This document shows positions 5,097 through 14,250 of a stretch of 19,476 nt of DNA, piece by piece. Origin of the DNA: a virus; UHGV virus genome UHGV-0127163; one strand, given 5' to 3'. A program made the translations under genes and the position numbers. Under the pieces are notes generated by a model. That model was not told the origin of the DNA, ran no database searches, and worked only from the letters and a program-made list of their open reading frames with translations. Position 1 is the stretch's first letter. The number at the start of each line of letters is the position of its first letter.

Positions 5097-5292
5097 GCTT
5101 CACCTCGATAGGCTTGATGGTGTCTAACAGCAGTCGGCGGCGCGTATTTTCTGCAAAGTGGCGGCGTCCAGTTTCTTTGTGGTAAAACTCGTTTTTGCCG
5201 ACGACCCACATCCGTTCTGTTTGGTGCAATTTTTTTACCTGCGGTCCATCTTTGGTGATCACGGTACCGGTATGGGTTTTTACGATTGTCAT
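5089..5292 (-). CDS. Hypothetical small phage protein (67 aa)
   Basis: ATG 5292 with AGAGGT SD, ATGA overlap with stop of PAPS-reductase-like gene. Confidence 0.5.
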   Translation of the reverse strand: MTIVKTHTGTVITKDGPQVKKLHQTERMWVVGKNEFYHKETGRRHFAENTRRRLLLDTIKPIEVKHV

Positions 5293-6167
5293 GCCACTAC
5301 CTCTTCGAATTTCAACTCCAATTGGTCACCCCAGATTTCACATGATTCGGAACACGAACCAGTATCAAACCGCTTGGCCAGCACCATCGCCTGATACAAA
5401 CTTCTGTAGTCGCTGTCGGCATACATTCTGGCAATCCTGTCAAGCGTCAGGTGACCACGGTACATAACGTCTTTACCTGTTCTGCGATGACCATCCCGGA
5501 CGTGTTTGCCTGTAACCAGTTCATTAAAAACCCGCATCAGACCAGGTTCGTCTTTACATGCGATCCCCAGCTTTTGCGTTGACTTTTTGATGCAGAAAAC
5601 ACAGTTCCCGAGGTGCTCCGGGATTTGCAAATCAAAAGGTTGTTTACGCCACCACCGGATAACATCCGACTTATCAAAATCTGACAGCTCGGCAAGATAC
5701 CGGACGCCCGGTTTCGGTTTCAGCCTACGGTGTTCGTCCGCACGAATACCCAGCCATGTGATGTAATTCCCTCGCCCAAAATGGTCATCGCAATATTTCG
5801 TGAAAGGGGTGAGTTTTAGCCTGTCAGTACAGAATGCGCCGCCGATGTATGGCGTACCGTACTTTTTAACCATGTCCATAAACGGTTTAAGCACCGGCAT
5901 TCGCGTCTGAATATCCTTTGGTTCCCATTCCGTATAACCATTTGGCTGCCCAAGCTCTGGATTTATATCGACCTGCAACACAGTTAGCGGTATGCCCCAG
6001 AACTTCACAACCTCCCGAATAAAGCGGTATGTCAGCGGATGTTCGCAACCGGTATCCATAAAGATGTAGCAGACGTTATTGCCAGCCTTTCTTTGTTCTT
6101 CCATCAGGTGAACAAGATATGCAGATGTTCTCCCGCCAGAAAAACTAACTACATGAGTTATGCACAT
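5289..6167 (-). CDS. Phosphoadenosine-phosphosulfate (PAPS) reductase-family protein (PP-loop ATP pyrophosphatase fold)
   Basis: 292 aa; N-terminal PP-loop-like motif VVSFSGGRTSAYL (SGGxxS-type), typical of the PAPS reductase/ATP-sulfurylase-like superfamily found in lambdoid early regions. Confidence 0.7.
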   Translation of the reverse strand: MCITHVVSFSGGRTSAYLVHLMEEQRKAGNNVCYIFMDTGCEHPLTYRFIREVVKFWGIPLTVLQVDINPELGQPNGYTEWEPKDIQTRMPVLKPFMDMVKKYGTPYIGGAFCTDRLKLTPFTKYCDDHFGRGNYITWLGIRADEHRRLKPKPGVRYLAELSDFDKSDVIRWWRKQPFDLQIPEHLGNCVFCIKKSTQKLGIACKDEPGLMRVFNELVTGKHVRDGHRRTGKDVMYRGHLTLDRIARMYADSDYRSLYQAMVLAKRFDTGSCSESCEIWGDQLELKFEEVVA

Positions 6168-6694
6168 TTGCGTAATTCCGATAACTCGTTGAAGCGTTCC
6201 ATAAACATCCCGTAGGCATGGCCCGGTGCCAGTGGAATCACTTTGAACATCTCTGTTGCCGGGATACCTTCCAATACAGGCCAGAAAGAGCCATCATCAA
6301 GTCCGAGATCGCGGCGTTCGGTTGCCAGCATGATGAGATCGGCATATTTCACAGGCGTGCTCATAACCGGGGGTAACCCGTATTTCTCACGGATTACGGC
6401 GTCTATTTTTTCTTCCATCCGTTTATAGTCAGGAAGAAGGCGTTTCAGTGGAGCGGGAATATCCTGGCAATACGCTTCTGTTGCATCATGCATTAACGCT
6501 TCAAAAGCAAATTCCTGCGGCACCAGCTGGCTGCAAAGCACCGCATGTTGGGCGACACTGTAGAAGTGAGAAAGATGACCGGCAAAGCGGCAGATATTTG
6601 AAAGGGAAACCGCGATATCGTTAATCACGATGTCGTCTTTATTTATCTTGTCATAATAAAAATGCTTCCCGGAAAAAGTTTTAATAAATGACAT
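6158..6694 (-). CDS. HD-domain phosphohydrolase (YfbR-like nucleotidase family)
   Basis: Translation contains H…H and HD motifs (…FAGHLSHFYSVAQHAV…, …ALMHDATEAYCQDIP…). Preferred start ATG 6694 with GGAGAA SD; the longer ORF-track start at 6763 lies inside a strong hairpin. Confidence 0.7.
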   Translation of the reverse strand: MSFIKTFSGKHFYYDKINKDDIVINDIAVSLSNICRFAGHLSHFYSVAQHAVLCSQLVPQEFAFEALMHDATEAYCQDIPAPLKRLLPDYKRMEEKIDAVIREKYGLPPVMSTPVKYADLIMLATERRDLGLDDGSFWPVLEGIPATEMFKVIPLAPGHAYGMFMERFNELSELRKCA

Positions 6695-6736
6695 TTTGTT
6701 CTCCACGTTATATGCGCTGCACCGCTCTGAATTTTG

Positions 6737-6786
6737 ATTGCAGCAATCCAGCCCATTTGACATGGGATGATTGCTGCAATTTTTTT
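6737..6786 (+). terminator. Perfect 12-bp inverted repeat with nested 5-bp hairpin, followed on the + strand by T6 (intrinsic-terminator-like on + strand)
   Basis: ATTGCAGCAATC (6737-6748) / GATTGCTGCAAT (6769-6780); inner CCCAT-ttgac-ATGGG (6752-6766); TTTTTT 6781-6786. Sits between the RdgC-like and HD genes. Confidence 0.35.
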
Positions 6787-7702
6787 AAGTTGTTGGATTT
6801 TGGCTTTTATCTTCTTTGTAAGAAAGAAGGTCACACATCAAATTAACTACCTTGCTGAATTGGAAAAGGTCAGCGCCAGTCTGATGACGCCACTGGAATG
6901 CTTTATCATCTTCATCATTAAATGTCTGAGATTGAGTATTGATGCGCGAAAAATGGAAATTTTCGGTAAGAATGAAGGTCACACCGCAACCGGATAACTC
7001 CATTTTATCAGCAGTGAAACTACTACTAAGGCTATCGGCCAGTTCGCTTTGAATTGACTCATGCTCAGCTGAGTAGCGAATAATTTCCTTTTGATCTGCG
7101 TAGCGTGATAGCTGAATATAATTTCCGACAGTGAATCCTTCAAATGCATTGGCTGCACCATTGATGTAGTTATTCAGGCGTGTAGTCAGTCCATTCTTGA
7201 TATCACTGATGTTGATTGTTTCTGTTTTCACTGAACCGACAACCTTAATCAGCATTGCGCATACCATACCGGCTATTATTTTATTGGTTGTGTTGATTAC
7301 CAATAATTTCTCATCAGTGCTGTACAATGCAAGAATCAGAGTAGACTTAACAAATGCCTGTTTGCATAGATCTACTCGTACGTTATCAATAATGGCCAGT
7401 CGTTCGGCACGCTTTAATTTATTCCCGGACATATTTTCGATTGTTTGGATTCGAGAATTAGCTTCTTTCATGACGACATGTCGGGGAATTATTTTCTGAT
7501 CATGACGGATTACCATTGCGTACCCACCAGATATCGGAGTTACCAGTTCACCAGTGACAGGATTCTCTACAAAAGAGGACCGTGAAAATTCTGTTTCCCC
7601 GATTTCAGAATAAGGGAGTTCGAGAAGATGACCTTCAATAGCCTGTATACTAGGTAATGTTGCTCGGTACACAATTGCGTTACGAAATTTTGGTAATTTC
7701 AT
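6785..7702 (-). CDS. rdgC: RdgC-like recombination-associated protein
   Basis: From ATG 7702 (GAGGA SD) the product starts MKLPKFRNAIVYR…, matching the RdgC N-terminal pattern (M-x-x-F-K-N-x-x-VYR) and its ~305 aa length. The ORF-track N-terminal extension to 7903 overlaps the structured leader and is unlikely to be translated. Confidence 0.7.
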   Translation of the reverse strand: MKLPKFRNAIVYRATLPSIQAIEGHLLELPYSEIGETEFSRSSFVENPVTGELVTPISGGYAMVIRHDQKIIPRHVVMKEANSRIQTIENMSGNKLKRAERLAIIDNVRVDLCKQAFVKSTLILALYSTDEKLLVINTTNKIIAGMVCAMLIKVVGSVKTETINISDIKNGLTTRLNNYINGAANAFEGFTVGNYIQLSRYADQKEIIRYSAEHESIQSELADSLSSSFTADKMELSGCGVTFILTENFHFSRINTQSQTFNDEDDKAFQWRHQTGADLFQFSKVVNLMCDLLSYKEDKSQNPTT

Positions 7703-7740
7703 TCTATTTTCCTCTGCACAATGTATTAGTTTCTCCACAA

Positions 7741-7835
7741 AACAGAGAAGAACACCTGCGGTGGCAGCCGCCCGGATGGATTGGGTTATGAGCCCGTCGT
7801 CCGGTGATGCTCTTCTCTGTTTTGTAAAAAGAGCG
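7741..7835 (-). promoter_or_regulatory. Structured RNA element in early-left leader: boxA-like CGCTCTTTTTA followed by a 14-bp stem enclosing a ~53-nt multi-hairpin core
   Basis: On the - strand: CGCTCTTTTTA (7835-7825), then AACAGAGAAGAGCA (7821-7808) pairing with UGUUCUUCUCUGUU (7754-7741); 13 Watson-Crick pairs plus one G-U on the - strand (the same position is an A-C mismatch on the + strand). Immediately 5' of the RdgC SD. Confidence 0.4.
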
Positions 7836-8288
7836 GTACCAGCCGGAAGCAAGTGTACAAACTGGTACCGCCAAAGCAGTGGCTGTTGTGGTGGGGTTGT
7901 CACTCAGGCGTATGGTCAACCTGACAATCCGGTGTCCTCAACGGGGAAAGAGTAACCCCGCCATACTTACCGCCGCGCCATTTCGCGGATTACCACAACG
8001 CTGAGAGCACTTAGCCAGTTACGGCACCACACTTTGTCGCGGCTCCATAAATGCCCTCATCGTTGCACCCTGGTCTCTTCCCAAGCGTCAAACCGAATCG
8101 CCACGCTGGTTAGGCGTCTTATCAGCATCATCATTGACTTGCACATTCCGGCTACCTGGTTTGTTTGCCCGAGCAAGGAGTGGATTGTCCCCTTTAACGT
8201 CCCCAGACCGCTAACGACGCATGTGCCATACGCCGTGTTACAACCAACCTTTCGTTAACAACAGTCTGTTGTTTGTTCAGATAATGAT

Positions 8289-8303
8289 GCTACTAAAAGT
8301 AGC
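8289..8303. promoter_or_regulatory. Candidate OL operator: palindrome GCTACT-aaa-AGTAGC related to the OR repeats
   Basis: 15-bp site with 6-bp arms; shares CTA…AAGTAG with the 13-bp repeats at 10664-10676 and 10687-10699; a further AAAAGTAG half-site at 8318-8325. Embedded in AT-rich DNA with plausible leftward -35/-10 hexamers. Confidence 0.35.
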
Positions 8304-8538
8304 AAAAATCAACAACAAAAAGTAGAAGTGTGTATTTAATTTTTAGTTTTCTATATAACGTTATGAATTAAAAGGTTTTTCACAGATGGGGGGATGTGGT
8401 GTAGTTACGTATAGAAAATATCGAGTGTCTTTTGTTTTGGTTTAATTATTAGGTTAATTAGATAGTAATAATTTTGGGGAAAATAGTGGGAACTATGGAT
8501 ACAACGGGTCAGGAACAGTGTTATTAAGCAGGCTACGA

Positions 8539-8564
8539 GTATAAAACCCGACCTGTTGGTCGGG
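8539..8564 (-). terminator. Rho-independent terminator downstream of the ParA-like gene
   Basis: On - strand: CCCGACC-aaca-GGTCGGG (8564-8547) followed by UUUUAU (8546-8541), ~37 nt after the ParA-like stop codon (8601-8603). Confidence 0.6.
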
Positions 8565-8600
8565 CGAGAATTATGTTCGTTCTAAATCATGGTTATTGTA

Positions 8601-9686
8601 TTACAGACACTTGACTACTGTTGAAACATCAGATTCTAGTGCTTCAATTTGTGCTCTATTAGCTTGGGTCGCCATACCATAGATAGTGTAACTCTTATGC
8701 TGCAGCCTACTTAAAGGGCATCCCTCATGGTTTATTATTGCTGCAAGAGTATTACCATCTTTGACATTTTGAACTCTCTCGAAAGTAGCCACATTTGTGA
8801 ACAGATGAGGATGTGTATTTAACAGGTCATCCGTGATTCTTTTGATCTCTTCTGCATGTGATTTGAATGCTTTTGCTGCATCACTTTCATTAGTTCTTGA
8901 GCGGTTTTGTACGAAAAGGTGTAGTTCAGGTAGTTCGATAAGGTTTTGCTTTGCTTCTTTGTTGAAATCTAAGAACATTTCATCTTGTTCTGACTTGTCA
9001 ATAGACACTCCATAAATAAGTTTAACAAGGTTTTTTATTCCGCGAATTGATGCAGCATCGGCAGTGCAAGGGATAATTATTCTATTTGCCGCGACTACTC
9101 CCAATTCTGTGTAGCTGGCAAAACTTGGATTACAATCAATAAAAAATGTTTTTGCTCTGTCAGAAATGTTTTTATCGGCTTCAAAAGATGCTATTAGATC
9201 TACCAGCAAAGATCGGCTTTTCTTCCATGCTTCTTTTACTGGGGATGAGCCAATGTGAGATATTAAGCGTGAACAGATATCAAGATCGACATCACCAGGA
9301 AGAATATATAAGTTCTCTGGCATTTTTGCATTAACATCATGGGCTCGTACAAAGTAAGAAGATTCATTTCCTAAACGAGACAAAGGAGATTTGCTAAAAC
9401 GCTCCTTGATATAACCTGCGATTGTAACATTTCTGTCTCGCAATTTATTTAGATTTTCTTCCCCGGTACCATTGCCACCAAGAATAATTTCTGAAACGTT
9501 TGATTGAGGGCATGAGTCAATAACCACAACATCTTGATCCGGATGAGATATAGCAAACTCAACGGCAAGATTATATGTAAGAAAAGTTTTTCCTACACCA
9601 CCTTTGTTGTTCCATACTAAATATTTTGTATTGGTGGAAATCATATCTGCTACCCCATCTGTCGCTTCAGTACGTTCATTAATCAT
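8601..9686 (-). CDS. ParA/MinD-superfamily P-loop ATPase with ~100 aa C-terminal extension; orphan gene in the cI-to-OL interval
   Basis: Deviant Walker A NNKGGVGKT, Walker A'-like VVVIDSCPQ, Walker B-like FFIDCNPSF in translation. AGGA SD 7 nt before ATG 9686. Visibly AT-richer than flanking phage DNA; preceded by a 234 bp AT-rich spacer and followed by its own terminator. Confidence 0.75.
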   Translation of the reverse strand: MINERTEATDGVADMISTNTKYLVWNNKGGVGKTFLTYNLAVEFAISHPDQDVVVIDSCPQSNVSEIILGGNGTGEENLNKLRDRNVTIAGYIKERFSKSPLSRLGNESSYFVRAHDVNAKMPENLYILPGDVDLDICSRLISHIGSSPVKEAWKKSRSLLVDLIASFEADKNISDRAKTFFIDCNPSFASYTELGVVAANRIIIPCTADAASIRGIKNLVKLIYGVSIDKSEQDEMFLDFNKEAKQNLIELPELHLFVQNRSRTNESDAAKAFKSHAEEIKRITDDLLNTHPHLFTNVATFERVQNVKDGNTLAAIINHEGCPLSRLQHKSYTIYGMATQANRAQIEALESDVSTVVKCL

Positions 9687-9920
9687 TATCGTATCCTGTT
9701 GTATAGAATTGTCTATTATTTATGTTTTATTTTGGTTTTTTTTGTGTTAGTAACGCACCCAAAGATAACATATGGTCTTTATCTTTTCTTACTTAGGGTA
9801 ACAGCTCAGTGTTAATCCATTTTTATGGACCAATGTGCCAAATAAAATTTGTATAAAGATTTTCTATCCTTATCTTTTATCATCTGTGCTCGTTTGCTTT
9901 AACGATTGCTAGATGCCTAA

Positions 9921-10661
9921 TTAAAGTCGATTATATTTAATCGACTCATGAATCAGTGCCTTACCCATAACATAAAGCTGATCTTGCGACTTCTCATCAA
10001 TGTACCATTTCTCATAGGCGGGGTTATCCGAAAGAACAGCTAGTTTGTTGCCTTGCATTTGTAGACGTTTAACATGGAAAGTCTTACCGTAAACGAAAGA
10101 GTAAACTCCATCAGTCTGGAAGTGGCGAACGGAAATGTCGACAAACAATCGATCCCCGGAAACAAGAGTTGGGGACATACTATCTCCATTTACCGTCATA
10201 ACTTTTATATCATTCTGAGAACGGTTTCCGAAAAGAGAACGGGCATGTTCAGTTGTGAACTCAATGGCGTAGAGCACATCAACATAGTCTGAAAGCATAT
10301 AGGTCCCAGGTCCTGCGCTAACGCTAAGATCCAAAACTTCTATCCTGTATACATCGGGCTTTGTTGGATTGGGGATGCTTGCCATTTCCTTACATTCCTC
10401 TCTATCTCCAACACCATATTCTAGATATGAAGCTGATACTCCAAGAGCCAACGCAAGTTTACTCATGACAGAGACACGTGGCTTCGCTGCGCCGATTGTG
10501 TATCGACGAGCCATTTCATATGTAACGCCCACAAGACTTTTGAGTTGAGTGACAGAGATTCCTTTGATTGTCATCAATTCGTTTAGTCTCTTGGCGAAAT
10601 CTGGATACTTCTGTTCTTCTACCATAGGTAGAAGATTACTCACATCGCACGCGCTAGTCAT
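9921..10661 (-). CDS. cI: CI-like prophage repressor (XRE-type HTH + LexA/S24 peptidase autocleavage domain)
   Basis: HTH segment …ISVTQLKSLVGVTYEMARRY…; C-terminal S24 signature …VNGDSMSPTL… and downstream Lys (…FHVKRLQ…). Divergent from the cro-like gene. ATG 10661 has no SD and abuts operator repeats, consistent with a leaderless pRM-type transcript; ORF-track start at 10682 is TTG. Confidence 0.8.
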   Translation of the reverse strand: MTSACDVSNLLPMVEEQKYPDFAKRLNELMTIKGISVTQLKSLVGVTYEMARRYTIGAAKPRVSVMSKLALALGVSASYLEYGVGDREECKEMASIPNPTKPDVYRIEVLDLSVSAGPGTYMLSDYVDVLYAIEFTTEHARSLFGNRSQNDIKVMTVNGDSMSPTLVSGDRLFVDISVRHFQTDGVYSFVYGKTFHVKRLQMQGNKLAVLSDNPAYEKWYIDEKSQDQLYVMGKALIHESIKYNRL

Positions 10662-10663
10662 TT

Positions 10664-10723
10664 CTATTTTAAGTAGTTGCAATTTGCTATTTTAAGTAGC
10701 ATCATCCCTCTGAATTTCAGAGG
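10664..10723. promoter_or_regulatory. OR-like operator/promoter region: two 13-bp direct repeats plus a 17-bp palindrome overlapping the cro SD
   Basis: CTATTTTAAGTAG at 10664-10676 and 10687-10699 (23 bp centre to centre); CCTCTGAA-t-TTCAGAGG at 10707-10723; cro SD AGGAGAAAGG at 10721-10730. Confidence 0.45.
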
Positions 10724-10731
10724 AGAAAGGT

Positions 10732-10971
10732 ATGTCATCTCAAAACTACACAGAGAAAGCAGTAAAGGCTGCGGGAAAATCTTTATCTGAAGTAGCCCGT
10801 CGCTTTGGTTTTAAGTCCACTCAATCCGTCGCCAATTGGGTAATTAACAATCAAGTCCCGTCAGAACGGGTTTTACAACTTTGTGAGTTGGGAAACTGGT
10901 CCGTGACCCCTCATGAACTGCGTCCTGATATTTACCCCAATCCAAATGATGGATTACCTGAGTGCTATTAA
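10732..10971 (+). CDS. cro: Cro-like HTH regulator (DicC/YdaS family)
   Basis: 79 aa, strong SD, divergent from cI; …GKSLSEVARRFGFKSTQSVANWV…VP..R…LRPDIY pattern resembles DicC/YdaS-type Cro proteins. Confidence 0.7.
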   Translation: MSSQNYTEKAVKAAGKSLSEVARRFGFKSTQSVANWVINNQVPSERVLQLCELGNWSVTPHELRPDIYPNPNDGLPECY

Positions 10972-11608
10972 AAAGTTAGCGGTTCAACTGCGTAAACGTA
11001 ACCACAGAAACGAGGAATTAACCGTGGGTAAAGAACCTGAATGGAAAGTTGATAAGCAACCAGCATGGCTGGTGGCAGCAATACGAAGAACGATTGCTGA
11101 TTTACCTCATGGCTATGAGGAAGCAGCGGAAATTCTTGGTTTGTATAAATCTGATGATATCACCCCAGCGAAAGATCAATTGCATAACAGACTGCGTAGC
11201 GGTGGGGATCAAATTTTTCCACTTGAGTGGGCCATGGTTTTACAGGATGCCAGTGGTACCAGGCATGTAACGGATGCGATAGCGCGTCGTAGTAATGGGG
11301 GGTTTGTGCCGCTGGTGGACATTGATGACATTGACAATGGTGACATTAATCAGCGGCTGATGGAGTCAATAGAATGGATTGGCAAGCATTCCCAGTACTT
11401 ACGCAAGGCAACTGCTGATGGAGTTATTGACCAGGCTGAGCGTGAGCAAATCGAAGAGAACAGCTACCAAGTAATGGCGAAGTGGCAGGAGCATTTAACA
11501 CTGTTATTTCGTGTTTTTTGTGCGCCGGAAAAGAGTAACGCCCGCGAGTGTGCAGCTCCGGGCGTCGTGGCGTCGATTGCTTCTGGTTGTGGAGAAACTA
11601 ACGCATGA
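10946..11608 (+). CDS. Hypothetical early-right protein in the cII position (possibly YdaT-like); start uncertain
   Basis: ORF overlapping the 3' end of cro in another frame; candidate starts ATG 10946 (no SD) or GTG 11024 (GAGGA SD). Family not securely recognised. Confidence 0.45.
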   Translation: MMDYLSAIKKLAVQLRKRNHRNEELTVGKEPEWKVDKQPAWLVAAIRRTIADLPHGYEEAAEILGLYKSDDITPAKDQLHNRLRSGGDQIFPLEWAMVLQDASGTRHVTDAIARRSNGGFVPLVDIDDIDNGDINQRLMESIEWIGKHSQYLRKATADGVIDQAEREQIEENSYQVMAKWQEHLTLLFRVFCAPEKSNARECAAPGVVASIASGCGETNA

Positions 11609-11933
11609 ATAGTTTAACGGCAAATAACCGTTTGTCGCAACAGCTGGTGGTCAGCGTCGCTGAACACCTGTTGTTACGGCATGAATGCAGATTACCAAAT
11701 CACCTGGCTGTAAGTAACCACAGAGAACTTTACCTGACTGTGGGGGGCGAGTTGTGCAGGAACTTAACCGCTGGTTTCGTGACGGAAGAGGGCTTTATGT
11801 CCATGTTATTCGTTGGGAGCCAGAAACACAGCGCGTTATCTATCTTCGCAAAGACTACCCGCATGAGTGCTTTAGTCCTTTGTGGAAATTCAGGCGTGAT
11901 TTTGTTGAGTGTGAAGGACCACCAGCATATTGA
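11605..11933 (+). pseudogene. Small gene split between frame 1 (11605-~11748) and frame 3 (~11748-11933) at a G6 run: frameshift mutation, homopolymer sequencing error, or -1 frameshift site
   Basis: ATG 11605 is coupled to the upstream stop (ATGA). After the G6 run (11742-11747) only frame 3 reads as protein-like (RVVQELNRWFRDGRGLYVHVIRWEPETQRVIYLRKDYPHECFSPLWKFRRDFVECEGPPAY, stop 11931-11933); frame 1 turns Ser/Ala/Gly-rich and low-complexity. Frame 3 is closed upstream by TAA 11715-11717. Confidence 0.35.
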
Positions 11934-12021
11934 TTCTGCAATTCCGGGACGTTACACTGCTCAGGCACCTTATAAAGCGGGTGCCGGGGGTCGCAGCCCG
12001 GAATTGTCAACGGCGATATAT

Positions 12022-12041
12022 GACGCGCCAGCGTCTTTTTT
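12022..12041 (+). terminator. Candidate weak intrinsic terminator (tR1-like) upstream of rha
   Basis: GACGC-gcca-GCGTC followed by TTTTTT (12036-12041); lies inside the computed 382-aa ORF, ~90 nt after the frame-3 stop. Confidence 0.4.
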
Positions 12042-12207
12042 ATCGTCCGCGCTCACGCACGCCAGAATTATGGTGGGCTGGGCAGGGGAGCCGAAAGGCT
12101 CGCCGGTCTCCGTTGACGCCGGTACTGCGAACCCTGTTCAGTCTGCCACCAGTGAGTTTCGCAGCTCCGGTGGTGGAAGTTTTCCACAGTCAACGGAGGC
12201 TGCCATC

Positions 12208-12753
12208 ATGGCTACGATCCCAACCCTCACTCAACCTGAAATTGCCATCGTTGATGGTCAGGCTGTTACTTCATCCCTGGCTGTTGCCAACTTCTTCTCC
12301 AAACGTCATGACGATGTACTGAAAAAGATCCGCACGCTTGAATGCTCTGCATCATTCACTTCCCGCAATTTTTCGGTGAGTGATTACACCGATTGCACAG
12401 GCCGCAAACTACCTTGCTATCAAATAACCCGCGACGGCTTTGCGTTTCTTGCTATGGGTTTCACGGGTAAACGTGCTGCCCAGTTCAAAGAGGCATACAT
12501 CAATGCCTTTAACCAGATGGAGAAACAGCTTTCAAATCCCTCTGTACTGAGCGACGTTGCACATAACGCCAGCGTTCTCTATTCCTACATTTCATCAATT
12601 CATCAGGTCTGGCTGCAGCAGCTTTATCCCATGTTGGCAAAAGCCGAATCCCCGCTGGCTGTAAGTCTGTATGACCGCATCAACGACGCGGCGCTACTGG
12701 CCAGTCTCATAAATTTGTCGCTGAACCCTTCAGAGGTAAGGGGGCGCAAATGA
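12208..12753 (+). CDS. rha: Rha-family phage regulatory protein
   Basis: From ATG 12208 (GGAGG SD at 12195-12199) the product begins MATIPTLTQPEIAIVDGQAVTSSLAVANFFSKRHDDVLKKIRTL…, matching the N-terminal Rha domain (…KRHDxVLrxI…). The 382-aa ORF-track version is judged an artefactual upstream extension. Confidence 0.65.
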   Translation: MATIPTLTQPEIAIVDGQAVTSSLAVANFFSKRHDDVLKKIRTLECSASFTSRNFSVSDYTDCTGRKLPCYQITRDGFAFLAMGFTGKRAAQFKEAYINAFNQMEKQLSNPSVLSDVAHNASVLYSYISSIHQVWLQQLYPMLAKAESPLAVSLYDRINDAALLASLINLSLNPSEVRGRK

Positions 12754-12974: not shown

Positions 12975-13270
12975 ACTGTTTTCAGTTTGTGTGCGGATGT
13001 GCTTTCGATAACCCGATTCAGCGCCTGATTATGTTGCGCGTTTTGATGTCGGGTTCTTCAGACGGTGAAGGCGAGAGAGTTATTGATCATCAGGTGCTTG
13101 CTGATTTCTGCTGTTGTTCTAAGCAAGCGATATTCAGGGAAACCCTGGCACTGGAAAGAGCTGGTTATCTTCATATCCGAAAAATTGCAACGCTTACTAT
13201 TGATGCAAAAGCCAGACTACAACCTGCGCGTGGCTACACAATTCTCATGCTGCGGAAGGAGGTTGTATGA
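12971..13270 (+). CDS. Hypothetical phage protein (99 aa), GTG start
   Basis: GTG 12971 after GGAGG SD, GTGA overlap with upstream stop; no domain recognised. Confidence 0.5.
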   Translation: MNCFQFVCGCAFDNPIQRLIMLRVLMSGSSDGEGERVIDHQVLADFCCCSKQAIFRETLALERAGYLHIRKIATLTIDAKARLQPARGYTILMLRKEVV

Positions 13271-14250
13271 GCCGTTACGCCCCCACACCGGAAGTTATGG
13301 CTATTGGTCAAATTAATATTTCCGGCAATGTTACACCTGCGACCTGGTGGAAATATATTCGACTACCCAGTGGGCGTCCGGATGCGACGGCTATCGCTCT
13401 GCTTTCAGAGATCGTTTACTGGTACCGCCCGACAGAGGTCAGGGATGAGCACACCGGAGCGTTGCTGGGATATCGCAAGCGTTTTCAGGGCGACAAACTG
13501 CAAAGAAGCTACCAGGCGTTTGCTGAGCAGTTTGGTTTCGGGAAAAGGGAAACCGCAGATGCGCTGAAGCGTCTGCGCGATGCAGGGTTTATTACTCTGG
13601 ATTTACGCACGGTGGAAATGCTCGATGGGGTGAAATGCAGCAATATTTTGTTTGTCGGGATCAACCCACAGGCAATTGCGGCCATCACCACACCTTCTTC
13701 TGTTTCGCCAGAAAGTAACAGCAATAATGCAATCAGCGATACAGCTATTACGTTAAAACGGAACACCCCCCGACGTCATAACGGAACAGGGGATACGCCG
13801 AATGTTGATACAAATACAGAGATTACTACAGAGATTACAACGGAGACTAAAAACACTATTGATGCATCCGCTGACGCGTCTGCGCCAGCGCGTTCTGCCC
13901 GACAGGAATATTCACCGGAATTTGAACAGGCCTGGCAGGAATATCCCAAACGTGCTGGTGGCAATTCAAAATCAGCAGCCTTCAAAGCCTGGAAAGCCCG
14001 TTTGAACGAGGGGGTAAACCCCGAAACCATGCTGGAAGGTGTGAAACGCTACGCGGGCTGGGTATCTGCGATGGGCAATAGCGGCACACAATTTGTGAAA
14101 CAGGCTGTCACGTTCTTTGGTCCGGATCGTCATTTCGAAGAATCCTGGGAAGTTCCTGCGGTATCTGCAGCCAGACGCGAGGACCCGTACTTCAAAGCCA
14201 GTTACGACAACGTGGACTACAGCCAGATCCCGACAGGATTCAGGGGGTGA
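13267..14250 (+). CDS. DnaT-like primosomal/replication protein
   Basis: GGAGG SD before ATG 13267. N-terminus (MSRYAPTPEVMAIG…) and C-terminal end (…YSQIPTGFRG) resemble E. coli DnaT (…SQIPPGFRG) as recalled; central Thr/Glu-rich repetitive linker. Confidence 0.6.
   Translation: MSRYAPTPEVMAIGQINISGNVTPATWWKYIRLPSGRPDATAIALLSEIVYWYRPTEVRDEHTGALLGYRKRFQGDKLQRSYQAFAEQFGFGKRETADALKRLRDAGFITLDLRTVEMLDGVKCSNILFVGINPQAIAAITTPSSVSPESNSNNAISDTAITLKRNTPRRHNGTGDTPNVDTNTEITTEITTETKNTIDASADASAPARSARQEYSPEFEQAWQEYPKRAGGNSKSAAFKAWKARLNEGVNPETMLEGVKRYAGWVSAMGNSGTQFVKQAVTFFGPDRHFEESWEVPAVSAARREDPYFKASYDNVDYSQIPTGFRG
13815..13850 (+). repeat. Three tandem 12-bp units inside the DnaT-like gene (iteron-like)
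   Basis: ACAGAGATTACT / ACAGAGATTACA / ACGGAGACTAAA; encodes …TEITTEITTETKNT…. Confidence 0.5.

Follow-up and report, generated by a model that had tools for sequence, protein, structure and literature searches.

A solitary ParA/McdA-type ATPase gene in the rexAB-like slot of a lambda-like Escherichia coli prophage: a candidate exclusion factor

The ATPase gene and its product

The virus genome UHGV-0127163, a stretch of 19,476 nucleotides (nt) that was analysed as a whole and is called the window below, is a lambda-like Escherichia coli prophage, which is integrated beside yecE/DUF72 and carries an integrase. Directly downstream of its cI-like repressor gene lies one gene for an ATPase of the ParA/McdA type, which is the subject of this analysis (Table 1). 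A prediction made earlier from the sequence alone (hereafter the original prediction) had described it as a low-GC gene for a ParA/MinD-superfamily ATPase of 361 amino acids (aa) with a deviant Walker A motif and Walker A' and B-like motifs, and all of this was recovered from the open reading frame, the alignments and the Pfam matches.

The reading frame begins with an ATG that is preceded by an AGGA ribosome-binding site, and the N-terminus of the protein reads MINERTEATDG...KYLVWNNKGGVGKTFL. Its deviant Walker A motif, NNKGGVGKT, occupies residues 26-34 with Lys28 and Lys33 as the signature lysines. The invariance of motifs was judged from alignments of 17 and 61 homologs. K28, G30, G32 and K33 of the deviant Walker A motif, D57 of the Walker A' motif and D184 in the Walker B sequence DCNPS were invariant in the 61 homologs, and two further invariant motifs were seen in the homolog alignments, CPQxNxSE and the C-terminal KDGNT...H.G.P. 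The Pfam matches were AAA_31 (3e-16) and CbiA, and the PHROG match was PHROG_164, 'ParA-like partition protein'. With its deviant Walker A motif, its Walker A'/B aspartates and a seven-stranded fold, the protein belongs to the ParA/MinD superfamily (SIMIBI). The GC content of the gene is 37.8%, against 47.6% for the window.

It had also been supposed that the protein ends in an extension of about 100 aa of unknown function. This part of the prediction was not supported, for the C-terminal region is canonical ParA fold. Its last third is recognisable by structure only: when the C-terminal 107 residues were compared with PDB sequences, the hits were noise only, i.e. designed armadillo repeats. 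Canonical ParA and MinD resemble the protein in sequence only around the P-loop, the sole part that was aligned when the family profile was compared with E. coli MinD by hhalign and the sole part that was matched by P1-type ParA in a tblastn search. The closest structural neighbours are nucleoid-binding positioning ATPases, which bind DNA. The product is a complete, intact ParA/McdA-type ATPase with a deviant Walker A motif.

Table 1 Features of the immunity region in the window
Feature	Coordinates	Strand	Basis and remarks
Orphan ParA/McdA-type ATPase gene, 361 aa	8601..9686 (stop codon 8601-8603)	-	Identical to RefSeq WP_000606712.1 'ParA family protein'
Intrinsic terminator, hairpin of 8 pairs (6 G-C) followed by a T run	8546..8565	-	Sequence read directly; sole terminator-like site in 8000-10800
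AT-rich spacer, 234 bp, from cI stop to ATPase start	9687..9920	-	Terminator and promoter scan, locus comparison, RNA fold
cI-like repressor gene (HTH_3 + Peptidase_S24)	9921..10682	-	Pfam; RefSeq 'XRE family transcriptional regulator'; upstream gene of the presumed operon
OR (right operator), two 13-bp operator copies (CTATTTTAAGTAG), between cI and the cro-like gene	10659..10705	.	Direct repeat, inverted repeat, motif search
OL (left operator), operator pair (TGCTACTAAAAGTAGCA and a weaker copy), left edge of the immunity region	8284..8330	.	Inverted repeat, motif search
cro-like gene (YdaS/HTH), divergent from cI, completing the genetic switch	10732..10971	+	Pfam YdaS_toxin/HTH_3

The immunity region and expression of the gene

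The two operator regions are inverted copies of each other over 47 nt (79% identity), and each contains two 13-bp palindromic operators, CTAYTWWWAGTAG. Judged from their sequence, they are the OL and OR of this immunity type. Since they bracket both the cI-like gene and the ATPase gene, both genes are enclosed in the immunity region. On the other side of the switch, the cro-like gene is followed by a cII-like gene according to Pfam. In lambda, the corresponding arrangement is cI-rexA-rexB-t_imm. The ATPase gene similarly lies between OL and OR, downstream of cI and in the same orientation, and the terminator hairpin stands 36 nt past its stop codon. By analogy with t_imm of lambda, this hairpin is taken to end the cI-ATPase transcription unit before OL and the leftward promoter PL. 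In the original prediction a dedicated terminator (8539-8564), an AT-rich upstream spacer (9687-9920), a putative OL and a slot equivalent to that of rexAB, between cI and OL, had been proposed. The hairpin with its T run, the spacer in front of the cI-like repressor, the inverted copy of the OR pair and the positions of operators, strand and terminator agree with these proposals.

The prediction had further regarded the gene as a moron with its own promoter, and here the evidence points to a different arrangement. No terminator was found between cI and the ATPase gene (9687-9920), and the consensus promoter-like sites in 8000-10800 numbered fewer than expected by chance (4 found, 7.8 expected). 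The only consensus-like sigma-70 site near the gene, at 9715-9688, was rejected as its promoter, since it ends 1 nt before the ATG and cannot serve the reading frame. At loci with other repressors, the distance between repressor and ATPase gene ranged from 51 to 349 bp, and only the last ~35 nt, with the AGGA ribosome-binding site and an 'ATAGACA' box, were conserved. Because the spacer holds neither a terminator nor a credible promoter, co-transcription with cI was inferred, and read-through from the repressor promoter appears to be the likelier source of expression. The spacer RNA (window 9687-9960, minus strand) folds far better than shuffled controls (z = -4.6), with a 10-bp hairpin that spans the cI stop codon, and this structure may act as an attenuator. 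An Rfam scan of 7900-10800 gave no match.

The prophage and its variable slot

The cassette was found at 99% identity or more in 71 of the 5,426 complete E. coli genomes, O157:H7 and O145:H28 strains among them, and the gene is present in about 1-4% of complete E. coli genomes only. There are 133 further E. coli genomes with a cI allele that is ~91% identical at the nucleotide level, in which homology to the window ends at the cI stop codon. In E. coli EC11 the slot after cI is occupied by a divergent ParA-like allele (WP_023149747.1), and in SX12 (L137 4279-4978) and TUM9812 (L138 4298-4972) by two small hypothetical genes (115 + 126 aa and 133 + 90 aa, respectively), to which neither Pfam nor PADLOC assigned a family and which may serve as alternative cargo of the immunity region. 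The cI alleles of these slot-variant prophages are 80-92% identical to that of the window (80% in TUM9812). The view of the cI-proximal slot as a cargo hotspot, which had been part of the original prediction, holds, as both the content of the slot and the neighbouring repressors vary between prophages. In one genome, E. coli PEC165 (NZ_CM168018.1 3534466-3538204), the cI-ParA-like cassette is broken by an ISVsa5 (IS4-like) element.

Absence of a partition partner

A function as partition or maintenance ATPase, either in an episomal phase or as the remnant of a parABS module from a plasmid-prophage, is suggested by the ParA fold and motifs, by the label 'ParA-like partition protein' used in PHROGs and GenBank, and by homologs on P1-like plasmids. 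For Pseudomonas phage phi297, a parA without parB has been offered by its authors as a speculative cause of unstable lysogeny (PMC3564109). However, neither the window nor the RefSeq annotation of the same prophage, over 26 kb, contains a ParB-like gene, and a tblastn search with P1-type ParB gave no match. Nor is there a centromere-like repeat array, the only repeats found in the window being the OL/OR operators and two short unrelated tandem repeats. The search for partners was extended to 84 diverse loci, of which 822 neighbouring reading frames were clustered all against all and the nearest upstream and downstream genes were scanned with Pfam. No ParB family and no universal partner was found among them; the neighbour clusters that emerged were HEPN proteins (12 loci) and transposases only. 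The hallmarks of a type I ParABS system, namely an adjacent ParB, a centromere array and an autonomous low-copy replicon, are all lacking in the integrated prophage.

About 150 IncY P1-like phage-plasmids carry a full-length homolog that is 35% identical to the window protein. Their layout was examined in one plasmid, NZ_CP057246.1 (L139 6001-7056; L143 1-3633), in which the homolog occupies 10.6-11.7 kb and is preceded by icd, by a pair of KilAC antirepressor genes and by the gene of a 281-aa helix-turn-helix (HTH) protein. At 1-3.6 kb, apart from it, stand the canonical repA, parA (398 aa) and parB, and the homolog is thus a second, partner-less ParA and not the partition ATPase. Among 50,697 phage records searched, only five contained a homolog, and none of these came from a P1/P7-type phage. 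The absence of ParB and of centromere-like repeats noted in the original prediction was confirmed by these searches, and homologs consistently paired with ParB in plasmid-prophages, which would have spoken for partition, were not seen. Because there is neither a ParB-like partner nor a centromere, the ATPase is not the partition motor of the integrated element.

Repressor linkage, spread and selection

Forty IMG/VR loci encode homologs that are 83-100% identical to the window protein, and 37 of them retain upstream sequence. At 36 of the 37, the gene directly follows a repressor gene that diverges from a small cro-like gene; the exception (L038) has no repressor on the plus strand. At least eight repressor types were found next to these close homologs, one of them identical to the window cI. 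The S24 repressors at homolog loci are of several types, being 22-41% identical to the window cI or without detectable similarity to it, and short HTH_3-only repressors (137, 155 and 161 aa) also occur. The linkage is seen in distant relatives as well: homologs follow an S24 repressor in phage phi297 (38% identity, annotated as gp27) and in Salmonella phage S.Inf 5-2 (31%), and that of the P1-like phage-plasmids follows the immI antirepressor genes. The repressor-linked homologs fall into three different clades of a neighbour-joining tree. Whether homologs recur next to phage repressors had been left as a question in the original prediction, and the IMG/VR loci, phi297 and S.Inf 5-2 answer it positively.

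The linkage is not obligatory. A 63% identical homolog lies in the late region of an Acinetobacter prophage beside hicAB. Another, 67% identical, belongs to an integrative element of Campylobacter sp. CCUG 57310 (L045 6001-7485), in which a ParE toxin, RhuM and integrases are also encoded; a gene for an SNase nuclease comes 70 bp downstream of this homolog. At another locus (L064), a DUF1016_N nuclease-related reading frame overlaps the end of the ParA-like gene. Solitary insertions between housekeeping genes were found in Aggregatibacter, Alysiella and metagenome-assembled genomes (MAGs) of Akkermansia, Oscillospiraceae and Edaphobacter. Truncated ParA-like alleles also exist, in a protein cluster of 92 members (P0047, 257 aa) and in Leclercia (L063, 232 aa).

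Homologs of ~345 aa with 55-67% identity occur in Campylobacter, Aggregatibacter, Acinetobacter, Moraxella, Azospirillum, Gallionella and Electrothrix. In a genome scan, relatives were found in more than 550 species, from phyla that include Planctomycetota, Verrucomicrobiota, Spirochaetota, Cyanobacteria and Acidobacteriota, and in two archaeal MAGs. At 50% clustering only 66 clusters scored below 1e-30, and the family is therefore a compact subfamily. Its patchy distribution is consistent with horizontal transfer. Among enterobacterial alleles, nonsynonymous divergence (dN) was 0.04-0.13 and synonymous divergence (dS) was saturated, with dN/dS of 0.02-0.05 where computable. These values indicate that the gene is functional and under strong purifying selection.

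The HEPN-coupled sister clade

At the 12 HEPN loci, a gene of ~200 aa assigned by Pfam to HEPN_RiboL-PSP starts 1-13 bp downstream of the ParA-like gene, and all of its products share an invariant VRHSFAHGF (Rx4H) motif. The loci span beta- and gammaproteobacteria, cyanobacteria, Entotheonella and Binatia (e.g. L089 7869-9628 of Cupriavidus sp. BIS7 and L109 8010-9656), with hosts such as Cupriavidus, Duganella, Comamonas, Methylobacter, Microcoleus and Entotheonella. The ATPases of these loci are monophyletic and 34-39% identical to the window protein. No ParA-HEPN dyad was seen in enterobacteria among the loci sampled. A similar dyad of a ParA/Soj-like ATPase and a HEPN protein of the MAE_18760 family has been predicted to be a conflict system of toxin-antitoxin type that is regulated by the ATPase (Anantharaman et al. 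2013, PMC3710099). The likeness is that one clade of the same ParA-like family is translationally coupled to HEPN, whereas the window gene has no HEPN or other partner and is followed by the terminator and OL.

Comparison with known systems

No model of PADLOC-DB v2.0.0 matched the window protein; the sole hit, to Drt5 (E = 0.007 over 90 residues), was taken as noise. Seven relatives gave nothing or P-loop-only hits to PDC-M28B. In this respect the original prediction, which knew of no described defence system of this kind, was correct. It had added that the gene may be uncharacterised, and this holds in part: no experimental study of the repressor-adjacent ParA-like gene was found in the literature, but the protein has already been listed by DefensePredictor. 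In Table S10 of that work, WP_000606712.1 is given as a 'Predicted novel defense gene' with a mean log-odds of 8.34, the cut-off being 4 (DeWeirdt, Mahoney and Laub, Science 2026; PMC13092281). It was drawn from a survey of 3,000 genomes and is outside the 94 tested units, 42 of which (45%) were validated (PMC13092281).

The same work describes DS-15 ('AAA1'), a validated three-gene anti-phage operon of E. coli whose first gene encodes a 281-aa MinD/ParA-like ATPase (PMC13092281). Over 199 aa this ATPase shares 26% identity with the window protein (hhalign probability 98.3%), and its alignment with the window family extends over ~180-200 residues and takes in part of the insertion that follows the DxxPQxN motif. 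DS-15 differs in consisting of three genes (281 + 132 + 221 aa), whereas the window gene is solitary, encodes 361 aa and belongs to a different subfamily. Unlike WP_000606712.1, the DS-15 ATPase alone is not predicted to be defensive (log-odds -0.47). The partners of the DS-15 ATPase are absent here and unrelated to the HEPN proteins; DS-15C was considered as a HEPN relative of the sister-clade partners and was rejected, as no homology was found.

Compared with the positioning ATPases ParA, Soj and McdA, the window gene has no ParB/McdB-type partner, centromere or cargo, and its product differs by ~100 extra residues, present as insertions, and by its location in a phage immunity region. PDB entry 3PG5, the structural-genomics protein DIP2308 of Corynebacterium diphtheriae, is only ~20% identical to it. 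The gene occupies the same slot as rexA-rexB of lambda: it comes after cI in the same orientation, inside the interval bounded by the two operators, and a terminator ends the unit. The slot also varies between related prophages. Unlike rexA-rexB, the ATPase gene is one gene instead of two, shows no RexA/RexB homology and has no apparent membrane component.

Further features of the prophage

The early-left operon (5289-7903, minus strand) encodes an RdgC homolog, an HD-domain 5'-deoxynucleotidase (YfdR-like) and a PAPS-reductase-family protein, and the prophage is therefore CPS-53/KpLE1-like. The RdgC reading frame can be read from a GTG start with an N-terminal extension of 67 aa relative to the RefSeq call. 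At 11605-12753 (plus strand), a single 382-aa reading frame joins the Ash and Rha (Phage_pRha) regulatory domains; its counterpart in a near-identical RefSeq prophage is annotated as a shorter 'ash family protein'. In the replication-gene region, a 12-nt unit (TACAGAGATTAC) is repeated 2.7 times at 13815-13846 inside the reading frame 13267-14250, and these repeats may be origin iterons.

Proposed role and its alternatives

In many temperate phages the gene is carried as cargo that can be exchanged, within the presumed lysogenic transcription unit. Its best explanation, to which we assign a probability of about 0.45, is a role in conflict between genetic elements, i.e. exclusion or abortive defence by cargo that is expressed in the lysogen. 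This role is favoured by the position of the gene, by its capture on repeated occasions in unrelated phages, by the sister clade that is coupled to HEPN and by the machine-learning call. The ATPase would most probably be co-transcribed with the cI-like repressor and, as for rexAB of lambda, be expressed in lysogens and while lysogeny is being established. By analogy with the ParA/McdA family, it would form an ATP-sandwich dimer and probably bind DNA non-specifically. Its action would be ATP-dependent and non-nucleolytic, directed at DNA or at a conserved host machine, and the lysogen would be protected from superinfecting phages or other incoming DNA.

Several observations weigh against such a role. 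The protein contains no recognisable effector domain, and no catalytic effector besides the ATPase is visible. In most of the 80 species genomes sampled, the gene stands alone beside housekeeping or insertion sequence (IS) genes, and no defence island is visible around it. The conservation is atypically high for a sensor of fast-evolving phage proteins, which counts against a simple sensor model. The context in P1-like plasmids may be lytic and not lysogenic. To these must be added the lack of a PADLOC-DB v2 match, and the fact that the DefensePredictor score partly reuses genomic context and is not fully independent of the evidence presented here.

A stronger form of the proposal is that a solitary ParA/McdA-type ATPase is by itself a complete system against phages or mobile elements, with the HEPN RNase as an optional effector of one clade of the family. 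This form is considered unlikely, though less so than any of the alternatives below. Expressed with the repressor in lysogens, the ATPase would use its cycle of dimerisation and DNA binding to trap or mislocalise incoming DNA, to block its replication or packaging, or to arrest the cell, and no nuclease, NADase or membrane effector would be needed. The family would then be a widespread immune module that extends from Proteobacteria to archaea.

The main rival to a conflict role, itself rather unlikely, is a non-defensive factor of lysogeny or host physiology. Regulatory functions are known in the ParA family, for instance in Soj and FleN. The target of a regulatory ATPase of this sort could be the nucleoid, the initiation of replication, cell division or the phage switch itself, and its effect would be to stabilise lysogeny or adjust host growth instead of excluding phages. 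In favour of this explanation, the gene has stayed next to a repressor or antirepressor in four phage lineages that are unrelated, the closest structural neighbours are nucleoid-binding ATPases, and solo copies occur among housekeeping genes of many phyla; a universal target, such as DNA or a core machine, is suggested by the very high conservation and by the strong purifying selection. However, the gene is dispensable for the switch, since prophages with near-identical cI alleles lack it or have the slot filled otherwise. It is also found away from the repressor, in the Acinetobacter prophage, and in non-phage elements, its presence in E. coli genomes is sparse, and the HEPN-coupled sister clade points to conflict systems.

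Phages are known to carry antitoxin mimics. The orphan ATPase could likewise be an anti-defence gene that imitates the 'antitoxin' of ParA-HEPN systems and neutralises such systems of the host on behalf of the phage. Its relatives do form ParA-HEPN operons with the ATPase in the antitoxin position (PMC3710099), but this explanation is improbable: the HEPN-linked proteins are a separate clade of low identity to the window protein, the dyad was not seen in enterobacteria among the loci sampled, and solo forms are the large majority, on chromosomes included. Moreover, the gene is in the presumed lysogenic transcription unit and not in the early lytic operon, where anti-defence genes usually lie. 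Partition or maintenance is largely refuted by the missing partner and centromere and by the separate partition genes of the P1-like plasmid, to which the strong purifying selection adds an argument against a decaying remnant, and it is regarded as very improbable.

Biological meaning

The candidate sits within known kinds, namely ParA-family ATPases and immunity-region cargo, and has already been flagged computationally by others. As a factor of lysogeny or host physiology, it would provide the first case of an orphan ParA that is shown to take part in the genetic switch of a phage. If phage exclusion is its function, it would be an unusual single-gene system that is built on a DNA-positioning ATPase and not on a nuclease or a nucleotide-depleting enzyme, and the cI-proximal slot of CPS-53/lambda-like prophages would be a site of exchangeable immunity cargo. 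The computationally predicted ParA-HEPN dyads would then be tied to phage defence. Exclusion would also supply a function for a family with members in more than 550 species, e.g. in prophages of O157:H7 and O145:H28 E. coli, in phages of Klebsiella and Pseudomonas, and on the P1-like phage-plasmids that carry a homolog.

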